A stretch of DNA of 13,800 bases from a virus: UHGV virus genome UHGV-0225830; one strand, 5' to 3'. Made by a program: the position numbers and the translations under genes. The notes below the pieces were generated by a model. That model saw nothing but the letters and a program-made list of their open reading frames with translations, made no database searches and had not been told where the DNA came from. How positions within the stretch are numbered: position 1 is the first letter of the stretch; each line of letters starts with the position of its first letter. Shown in pieces: positions 10,666 through 11,357 of the stretch.

Positions 10666-11256
10666 ATGGCCGAACGTTGGACTAAAGAAGGTATTATTGA
10701 ATCAAAAACAGATTTAGAGGGTGGGTACGTGAACGACCCTGACGATAATGGTGGGGAAACCTGTCACGGGGTAACACTGACAACTGCACGCGAATACGGG
10801 TACAAAGGAAGAATGAAAGATCTGACCCGTGCGCAAGCGTTTGATATTTACGATCGTGGTTGGTGGAAGAAACTTAAACTCGATGAGATTTTCGCTATCT
10901 CGCCGATACTCGCAGACCGGATGTTTGATTTTGGTATTAACTCTGGCCGTGTTAACTGTGTGAAATCATTACAACGTATTCTCAACGTTTTAAATAACGA
11001 AGGGAAACTTTACGCAGATATTGACACCGACGGTGGCATGGGCCCTAAAACGCTAGGTGCCCTGAATGCTTATCTGAATTACCGTAAAGGTGAGGGATTA
11101 GGCATCTTAATCTTTGCGTTAATCTCACACCAGGTAACCTACTACACAGAAATCTCCGAAAAGCGTAAGAAGAATGAAAAATTCGCTTACGGCTGGTACG
11201 GACGCGTGTACAGGGAAATGCCGGATTATGTAGTGAAGGCGGGGTTAGTAAAATGA
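10666..11256 (+). CDS. Peptidoglycan hydrolase: GH108-type N-acetylmuramidase domain with C-terminal PG_binding_3-like domain (putative endolysin)
   Basis: ATG 10666 preceded by GAGGAG (10651-10656). N-terminal EGGYVNDPDDNGGETCHGVT contains the EGGY motif characteristic of GH108; the C-terminal half (GINSG..., DGGMGPKTLGALNAY, FAYGWYGRV) matches the PG_binding_3 pattern usually fused to GH108. Confidence 0.85.
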   Translation: MAERWTKEGIIESKTDLEGGYVNDPDDNGGETCHGVTLTTAREYGYKGRMKDLTRAQAFDIYDRGWWKKLKLDEIFAISPILADRMFDFGINSGRVNCVKSLQRILNVLNNEGKLYADIDTDGGMGPKTLGALNAYLNYRKGEGLGILIFALISHQVTYYTEISEKRKKNEKFAYGWYGRVYREMPDYVVKAGLVK

Positions 11257-11357
11257 ATTGGTTTGCTAAACTCTTAGCACTATTGTGGAAAGCGTTAACG
11301 TCTGGACGGAAACGTAAAGACGAAAAGCGTGGGTTCGAATTTTTCTGGTTTCTATAA
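11253..11357 (+). CDS. Small ORF (34 aa) overlapping the muramidase stop; possible small amphipathic or membrane-active peptide
   Basis: ATG 11253 overlaps TGA 11254-11256 (ATGA); MNWFAKLLALLWKALTSGRKRKDEKRGFEFFWFL has a hydrophobic N-terminus, a basic centre and an aromatic C-terminus. Below the ORF-track size cut-off and has a weak SD, so it could be spurious. Confidence 0.35.
   Translation: MNWFAKLLALLWKALTSGRKRKDEKRGFEFFWFL

Follow-up and report, generated by a model that had tools for sequence, protein, structure and literature searches.

The window analyzed here, a stretch of 13,800 nucleotides (nt) of viral DNA (UHGV-0225830), contains a 34-codon open reading frame (ORF) that begins on the stop codon of a muramidase gene of family GH108 and ends shortly before a DUF1353 gene. 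This small ORF is almost certainly a genuine protein-coding gene, because it is intact in relatives, has changed mostly at synonymous sites, and has a homologue at the same position in other phage genera. By sequence comparison, its product belongs, as a divergent member, to phrog_25143, a small-protein family that is catalogued and uncharacterized. As to its role, we tentatively propose, giving the complete statement somewhat less than an even chance, that the gene is co-translated with the muramidase gene and that its product would form a cationic amphipathic helix that destabilizes membranes and aids destruction of the envelope at lysis.

The ORF occupies positions 11253..11357 on the plus strand and comprises 34 codons followed by TAA, with the predicted product MNWFAKLLALLWKALTSGRKRKDEKRGFEFFWFL. 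Its ATG (11253-11255) shares bases with the TGA of the muramidase gene (11254-11256), forming an ATGA at 11253..11256 (plus strand), so that the frame is -1 relative to that of the muramidase. Both the coordinates and the overlap agree exactly with those of the initial annotation of this locus. There is no in-frame start codon upstream of the ATG within the window, and a weak GGGG is found 8 nt 5′ of it. Simple arithmetic indicates that neither feature is rare: the chance of a stop-free frame of 34 codons is approximately 0.2, and that of an A preceding a TGA is approximately 0.25. We therefore tested the ORF by comparison with relatives, and it is conservation that raises it above chance, not the length of the frame or the overlap alone.

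Judged by its predicted proteins, the window belongs to a jumbo phage of the SPN3US/Erskinevirus type. With their counterparts in Salmonella phage SPN3US (Seoulvirus) and in Erwinia phages Asesino and phiEaH2 (Erskinevirus), jumbo phages of approximately 240 kb, the proteins that flank the small ORF share approximately 57 to 65% identity, and the order of the genes, i.e., those for DUF7941 virion proteins, GH108, and DUF1353, followed in Seoulvirus by that for a 171-amino-acid (aa) M15-like protein, is shared. A megablast search of INPHARED with the window returned short matches only and no near-identical phage; relatives were reached by way of protein searches and IMG/VR. The close relatives used for comparison, which together with the window we call the window clade, were 11 contigs: five from IMG/VR (L005-L009, four of 150 to 225 kb and one of 107 kb, with flanking proteins 90 to 99% identical) and six from Logan assemblies (L087-L092). 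Three further variants of the peptide came from a protein collection (clusters P0001, P0005, and P0006).

The small ORF was intact at 34 codons in all 11 close relatives, with the ATGA overlap kept, and was also intact at 34 codons in the three additional clusters. Between the window and L006 it carries 12 nucleotide differences, eight of them at third codon positions. Counted by the Nei-Gojobori method, these amount to 9.5 synonymous and 2.5 non-synonymous changes, which gives proportions of differing sites of 0.475 (pS) and 0.030 (pN) and a ratio of non-synonymous to synonymous substitution rates (dN/dS) of approximately 0.04. With a neutral expectation of approximately 20% synonymous changes, the binomial probability of at least 9 of 12 being synonymous is 6e-5. 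In the same comparison, dN/dS was 0.04 for the GH108 gene, 0.09 for the DUF1353 gene, and 0.03 for the M15-like gene, showing that purifying selection on the peptide sequence is as strong as on the neighboring genes. The non-synonymous changes relative to L006 all fall within codon 28 (11334..11336), which reads Phe (TTC) in the window only, Tyr (TAC) in L005, L087-L092, and P0001, and Gln (CAA) in L006-L009; residue 28 is the sole hypervariable position of the peptide. For more distant pairs, pN/pS calculated from site and difference counts was approximately 0.27 (SPN3US versus SPAsTU) and 0.29 (Asesino versus phiEaH2). The initial annotation had proposed this kind of analysis as its check, and the ORF passes it, as no frameshift or internal stop was found in any relative, close or distant, that has the ORF together with both flanking genes. 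RNA structure was considered as another explanation of the conservation and was not convincing, as folding of positions 11200-11400 gave a z score of -2.2 and no Rfam family matched.

SPN3US, SPAsTU, Asesino, and phiEaH2 each have an ORF of 33 to 39 codons at the same locus, with the GH108 gene in front of it and the DUF1353 gene behind (example, MKSNWFVTLMRAIWRALVFAMRRKRHDKP...). In SPN3US, Asesino, and phiEaH2, the overlap with the muramidase stop is again the ATGA of the window clade; SPAsTU has GTGA there, or else an ATG 10 nt upstream. This recurrence fits the coupled translation that the initial annotation considered to be favored. These homologues make up phrog_25143, labeled as of unknown function, which also includes Stratton_173; the peptides of Asesino, phiEaH2, and SPAsTU match this profile in hmmscan with E values of 1e-19 to 1e-28. 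The window peptide itself reached no PHROG family at E ≤ 1 in hmmscan, the phrog_25143 profile included. Alignment of profiles with hhalign, the window clade against Seoulvirus and Erskinevirus, gave a P value of 7.8e-6, a probability of 84%, and 55% identity over 22 columns. Because this profile-profile match coincides with an identical position and with the start/stop overlap, we regard homology between the window peptide and the phrog_25143 peptides as established by sequence comparison. Over the whole length, identity is approximately 30 to 35%; both have an N-terminal NWF motif, an amphipathic helix of 17 residues with the same orientation of the polar face, and a basic cluster after the helix. 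They differ at the C terminus, where the aromatic GFEFFWFL tail of the window clade is replaced by a Pro/Gly-rich tail in the phrog_25143 relatives.

This is a narrow family. When 5.8 billion proteins were searched by profile, with an artificial query for which each peptide was padded with the last 10 to 11 residues of its own muramidase, the search retrieved six clusters, all of stand-alone peptides of 33 to 35 aa from large phage contigs, and no fusion of muramidase and peptide. A single-sequence phmmer search of 1.84 billion representatives with the window peptide returned its own cluster only, and neither the peptide nor its relatives matched anything in Pfam, NCBIfam, PDB, or Rfam. The remark of the initial annotation that such ORFs are missed by annotation pipelines is borne out here: the homologue has no annotation in either SPN3US record, Asesino (gp172) and phiEaH2 (AFQ96621) list it as hypothetical, the ORF is called in three of the six Logan contigs, and the exact window peptide is not recorded as a called gene.

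More than one small ORF can be present at this position. The 290-nt "intergenic" gap between gp156 and gp157 of SPN3US holds three conserved small ORFs (2540..2831 of the stretch 133500-138500 of NC_027402.1; the corresponding stretch in L004 is 2227..2493). ORF1 is the counterpart described above, with the pattern NWF..RRKR; ORF2 is Pro-rich with a GFFKLLRAIFxRRV segment and has a strong internal AGGAG ribosome-binding site; ORF3 combines DNDDWPKG with a transmembrane segment. None of the three is annotated in SPN3US, and SPAsTU annotates ORF2 and ORF3, not ORF1. The window clade lacks the second and third small ORFs found in Seoulvirus and Erskinevirus. Between GH108 and DUF1353, all related clades have small membrane-type ORFs, one to three in number, coding for amphipathic-cationic peptides (ORF1/ORF2) or for a transmembrane peptide. 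In the Machinavirus-type relatives (Caitlin, ChrisDB, and Huxley-like; L013-L016, approximately 2860..3000), this is a single ORF of 45 to 50 aa (phrog_26367) with a C-terminal transmembrane segment like that of ORF3 and an N terminus that resembles Seoulvirus ORF2, and in L017 (approximately 2880..2990) it codes for a 33-aa transmembrane peptide that is unrelated. In these jumbo phages, the Machinavirus-type relatives and L017 included, the GH108 gene is always followed by some small membrane peptide.

Two observations concern the origin of these peptides. MAFFT aligns the 3′ part of the window ORF with ORF2, but the idea that the GFEFFWFL tail is a remnant of ORF2 (..GFFKLLRAIF..) fused by a 13-nt deletion is no more than speculation, as the peptide similarity was no better than that of shuffled sequences (p, 0.1 to 0.85). 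In Erskinevirus, the C terminus of ORF1 (..KPESGF..) is similar to the beginning of the ORF2 helix region (..KPDAGFF..; shuffle p of approximately 0.01 to 0.02; L002, 2590..2680, and L003, 2395..2490), which hints that the ORF1 and ORF2 peptides arose there by a small internal duplication.

The peptide of approximately 4 kDa is composed as the initial annotation had described, i.e., of three successive parts, with a net charge of +5 in the window and +6 to +7 in relatives. Codons 2-18 (NWFAKLLALLWKALTSG; 11256..11306, plus strand) specify hydrophobic residues flanked by Trp and Phe; the predicted structure is an amphipathic helix whose Trp/Phe/Leu face is wide and whose Lys/Thr/Ser face is narrow. 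They are followed by RKRKDEKR (codons 19-26; 11307..11330, plus strand), a cluster of six basic residues that alignments identify as the counterpart of RRKR in relatives, and by the aromatic GFEFFWFL (codons 27-34 and TAA; 11331..11357, plus strand), whose EFFWFL end is found in the window clade only. AlphaFold run without an alignment predicted one helix over residues 4-33, with a mean predicted local distance difference test score (pLDDT) of 75.

The amphipathic moment of the 17 residues after the initiator Met was 0.45 (shuffle p, 0.002). Across six sequences from three clades it was 0.38 to 0.52 (shuffle p, 0.002 to 0.04), with a direction of 178 to 194 degrees, and in all six the polar residues were confined to an arc of 100 degrees. 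The basic residues of this segment occupy positions 5 and 12 in the window (K6 and K13 of the peptide) and positions 8 and 12, as Arg, in the others; conservation of the polar face despite different basic positions is what selection for amphipathicity predicts. By calculation, the moment is similar in size to those of melittin and magainin. We found no transmembrane segment: K6 and K13 break the hydrophobic stretch, and the best 19-residue Kyte-Doolittle mean was 0.51, far under the approximately 1.6 or more of a transmembrane domain (TMD), which upholds the earlier judgment that this is not a classical holin. The sequence also has no cysteine, no lipobox, and no signal peptide. Together, these properties make it probable that the peptide binds membranes, as a short cationic amphipathic helix with Trp and Phe at its ends is the standard design of peptides that bind and perturb anionic membranes at the interface.

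The small gene is the second of a four-gene unit, composed of the GH108 muramidase gene and the genes of the 34-aa peptide, the DUF1353 protein, and the M15-like peptidase, with terminator-like hairpins on both sides. The 5′ boundary is an intrinsic-terminator-like hairpin with a T run (10608..10628, plus strand; 9-bp stem with six GC pairs, tail CTTTTCTTTT) that closes the upstream DUF7941 virion gene. The muramidase (10666..11256, plus strand; 196 aa; homologue, SPN3US gp156) has no signal sequence, matches the Pfam domains Glyco_hydro_108 (E, 6e-23) and PG_binding_3 (E, 5e-16), and belongs to phrog_315, endolysin; it is a putative soluble endolysin. Behind the small gene, a 15-nt spacer (11358..11372, plus strand), conserved in L005-L009, contains a clear Shine-Dalgarno-like GGGAAGGTG for the DUF1353 gene (11373..12038, plus strand), whose product of 221 aa from the ATG is "tail assembly-like" (phrog_1158; homologue, SPN3US gp157). 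The last gene (12016..12531, plus strand) overlaps the DUF1353 gene by 23 nt and codes for a protein of 171 aa (homologue, SPN3US gp158) with the M15/VanY-type motif SQHKFGNAIDA ... WLHID, which was read by eye; no Pfam or NCBIfam model matched, and the protein falls in phrog_894, endolysin (E, 6e-28). Two different putative wall-degrading enzymes therefore flank the DUF1353 gene. According to PMC5105663, gp158 is present at low copy number in the virion, where it is associated with the tail, and was detected in tailed particles only. A bidirectional terminator-like hairpin at 12615..12642 forms the 3′ boundary.

The unit is located within a block of tail and virion genes, among DUF7941 virion structural paralogues and tail-fiber genes. 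The window contains several of these paralogues (891..1451, 9265..10113, and 10127..10603; DUF7941, phrog_1037, and phrog_2935, "virion structural protein"), and SPN3US likewise has them in a long array (116-131 kb). Convergent with the unit is a gene for a predicted lipoprotein of 163 aa (12647..13138, minus strand; MKSMIKRFLIVLVGVFSLAGC..., phrog_9559) that is kept at the same place in SPN3US (137623..138114). The window starts within a long-tail-fiber adhesin of the T-even gp38 type, whose C-terminal part (1..328) is 82 to 97% identical in DNA to that of RB49/Phi1/JSE-like phages (Krischvirus); a phrog_1121 "tail fiber adhesin" ORF (343..846) comes next. An SPN3US-like jumbo phage seems to have taken up a receptor-binding module of T4-like phages.

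The conserved overlap of stop and start fits termination-reinitiation, which is well established as a way in which bacteria and phages couple translation. Ribosomes that end on the muramidase gene would re-initiate at the overlapping ATG, and the peptide would therefore be made late, alongside the muramidase, a signal-less enzyme of an endolysin PHROG. The cationic amphipathic helix would then lie in the interfacial plane of anionic bacterial membranes and destabilize them, helping the muramidase to complete the breakdown of the envelope at lysis. The outer membrane, or the leaflet that faces lipopolysaccharide, would be the likeliest target once the wall has been cut; this target is suggested by analogy with the "disruptin" gp28 of phage phiKT or with the cationic C-terminal helices of some endolysins of phages of Gram-negative hosts. 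We propose such a membrane-active accessory because of the cationic amphipathic design and of the gp28 precedent.

Several observations weigh against this proposal. Searches of Pfam, NCBIfam, PDB, and PHROG annotation found no homology to a characterized protein, and searches of the literature on SPN3US, phiEaH2, holins, and spanins found nothing about the muramidase/small-ORF locus. The amphipathic moment of the whole peptide is no different from that of shuffled sequences, as only the aligned N-terminal segment of 17 residues differs. The Machinavirus-type relatives lack ORF1, which is therefore dispensable there, so the muramidase does not require it; similarly, the GH108 genes of Certrevirus, whose enzymes are equally similar (65% identical), have no small ORF behind them. 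As the unit is embedded in a virion/tail block, and its last product is, on the evidence cited above, tail-associated in SPN3US, the unit could serve infection or assembly. Finally, phage phiKZ has a canonical cassette of holin, endolysin, spanin, and regulator (PMC12894885), and a canonical lysis set may exist elsewhere in SPN3US-type phages too, in which case the peptide need not replace anything.

The RefSeq record of SPN3US names no holin or spanin, and the lysis candidates that we noted in this phage are all labeled "unknown function" in PHROGs. One is a conserved adjacent pair whose predicted features resemble those of a two-component spanin of the separated type. In the phrog_8719 member, an N-terminal TMD precedes a helical and Pro-rich part; the phrog_8165 member is a 159-aa lipoprotein (lipobox LLTGC). 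The pair is present in 68 phage records, at 180017..180976 in SPN3US (L097, 30017..30976) and at 1962..2924 in the window-clade contig L115. Scans with the SPN3US lipoprotein alone found SPN3US only and the lipoprotein alignment missed the window clade, which was found with the alignment of the TMD protein; there, in four independent contigs, the phrog_8165 homologue has a signal-like N terminus and no lipobox cysteine (MKMLLFIMVVFVGLVSNSYGDE...). The same clade is the one with the aromatic peptide tail and with a single small ORF, the second and third being absent. Elsewhere in SPN3US, an SLT transglycosylase (175058..175780; L097, 25058..25780) has a hydrophobic start like that of a secreted or signal-arrest-release (SAR) protein (MFRTILFLLVAVTTFNSNAS), and 650 nt downstream lies an ORF of 86 aa with two predicted transmembrane segments (176428..176688; L097, 26428..26688); these may be an unannotated set of SAR-endolysin and pinholin type.

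The presence of these candidates also favors another reading, in which the peptide is real and has no part in lysis. It would belong to the tail/baseplate module, as a small factor in structure, assembly, or a stage of infection (a partner of the DUF1353 or M15-like protein, for instance), and GH108 would be part of a wall-penetration set, not the lysis endolysin. The setting among DUF7941 paralogues and tail-fiber genes, the detection of gp158 only in tailed particles in the source cited, and the label of phrog_1158, tail assembly chaperone, all agree with it. Against it, gp156 and gp157 are not among the SPN3US virion proteins in the text and tables available, an amphipathic-cationic design typifies peptides that bind membranes and not factors of assembly, and sister clades place peptides with transmembrane segments at the same spot; we consider this reading rather unlikely. 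Slightly less credit still goes to action on the inner membrane from the cytoplasm, where the peptide would form pores or depolarize in the manner of a viroporin or of TisB, as a non-classical holin or lysis-timing factor that releases the signal-less muramidase or collapses the proton-motive force and so triggers other lysis proteins. A cytoplasmic peptide beside a soluble muramidase that needs passage across the inner membrane would suit this role, as would a narrow polar and a wide hydrophobic face, fit for deep insertion or helix bundling, and the transmembrane ORF3 peptide that relatives add in the same cluster. In the positive-inside pattern, a basic cluster follows a hydrophobic helix, which the peptide matches. 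However, its hydrophobic stretch spans only some 13 to 17 residues, with two Lys/Arg and the low hydropathy given above, and every established holin contains one or more TMDs (PMC12894885).

Two further explanations would take the peptide as something other than a separate functional product. The -1 frame could reflect a ribosomal slip at GTA_AAA_TGA that appends a cationic amphipathic C-terminal extension of 34 residues to some of the muramidase. The window clade and Erskinevirus have the sequence A_AAA_TGA, on which tRNA-Lys could shift back by one base at a slow stop codon and still pair perfectly, and endolysins of phages of Gram-negative hosts can carry cationic C-terminal helices. The slip site is not conserved, however, reading C_AAA_TGA in SPN3US and C_AAG_TGA in SPAsTU, whereas the start codon overlapping the stop is, and the large profile search yielded stand-alone peptides only, which makes frameshifting very improbable. 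It is even harder to maintain that translation alone matters, with the ORF as a ribosome relay from the muramidase to the DUF1353 gene and the peptide as a by-product, or, in the extreme, as a chance frame. The ORF does span the distance between the two genes, overlapping the first by 4 nt and leaving the 15-nt spacer before the second, and its length and overlap are each unremarkable. However, the DUF1353 gene has a good Shine-Dalgarno of its own, and the low dN/dS and an amphipathic pattern kept across clades whose neighboring proteins are approximately 40% divergent show selection on the amino acids.

A broader form of the proposed accessory role, which we consider distinctly unlikely, would make the peptide the core of an unrecognized lysis module specific to jumbo phages, in which peptides made by re-initiation serve GH108 without a classical holin or spanin. 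Sister clades would add to it a second amphipathic peptide and a tiny transmembrane peptide, and the diffusible cationic peptides would give the signal-less GH108 access to the wall, complete the destruction of the envelope, or do both. The spanin-like lipoprotein homologue of the window clade would have lost its lipid-anchor cysteine, and there the aromatic-tailed peptide would have taken over disruption of the outer membrane.

To our knowledge, lysis by SPN3US-type giant phages is essentially unstudied, the phiKZ cassette (2026) being the only one to have been defined. A micro-gene co-translated with the only soluble muramidase would make a candidate envelope-disrupting factor that is cheap and direct to test, and its product a possible natural antimicrobial that works with the endolysin. 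The annotation of a model giant phage is corrected: the 290-nt gap of SPN3US contains up to three conserved unannotated genes, which matters for proteomics databases and knock-down screens. Should the peptide be unrelated to lysis, the re-annotation would still be correct and of local interest only.

Compared with known lysis proteins, the peptide is, by its predicted features, neither a holin nor a spanin, because the defining features of these classes were looked for and it has no TMD, no cysteine, and no signal sequence. It resembles the holin and spanins of phiKZ (gp142 and gp141/141.1; PMC12894885) in being a small protein encoded near a muralytic enzyme in a jumbo phage and, unlike holins and spanins, lacks a TMD, a lipobox cysteine, and a periplasmic coiled-coil domain. 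A closer parallel is the disruptin of phiKT, gp28, a helical peptide of 56 aa and charge +7 encoded beside the endolysin gene, which disrupts the outer membrane in place of spanins, which phiKT lacks, and has no homologues outside the sister phage PGT2 (Holt et al.; bioRxiv 10.1101/515445). Both peptides are small and strongly cationic, are predicted to form an amphipathic helix, have neither TMD nor signal sequence, and adjoin an endolysin gene. The window peptide is shorter and less charged (34 aa, +5), and gp28 is encoded between endolysin and holin, whereas the window peptide adjoins GH108 with no holin adjacent and has as its other neighbors the DUF1353 protein and an M15-like protein whose homologue is reported as tail-associated in the text cited above. 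As no homology to gp28 is known and no holin is adjacent, and as the SPN3US-type group has a gene pair that looks spanin-like, the window peptide would at most work like disruptin, and membership of that class cannot be claimed. Cationic amphipathic helices are also known from the C termini of endolysins of phages of Gram-negative hosts and from lytic peptides of the melittin type. These share with the window peptide a KRKR-type cluster placed after a helix that is hydrophobic or amphipathic; in the endolysins the helix is a domain of the enzyme, whereas here it is predicted to be made as a separate polypeptide directly downstream of one.

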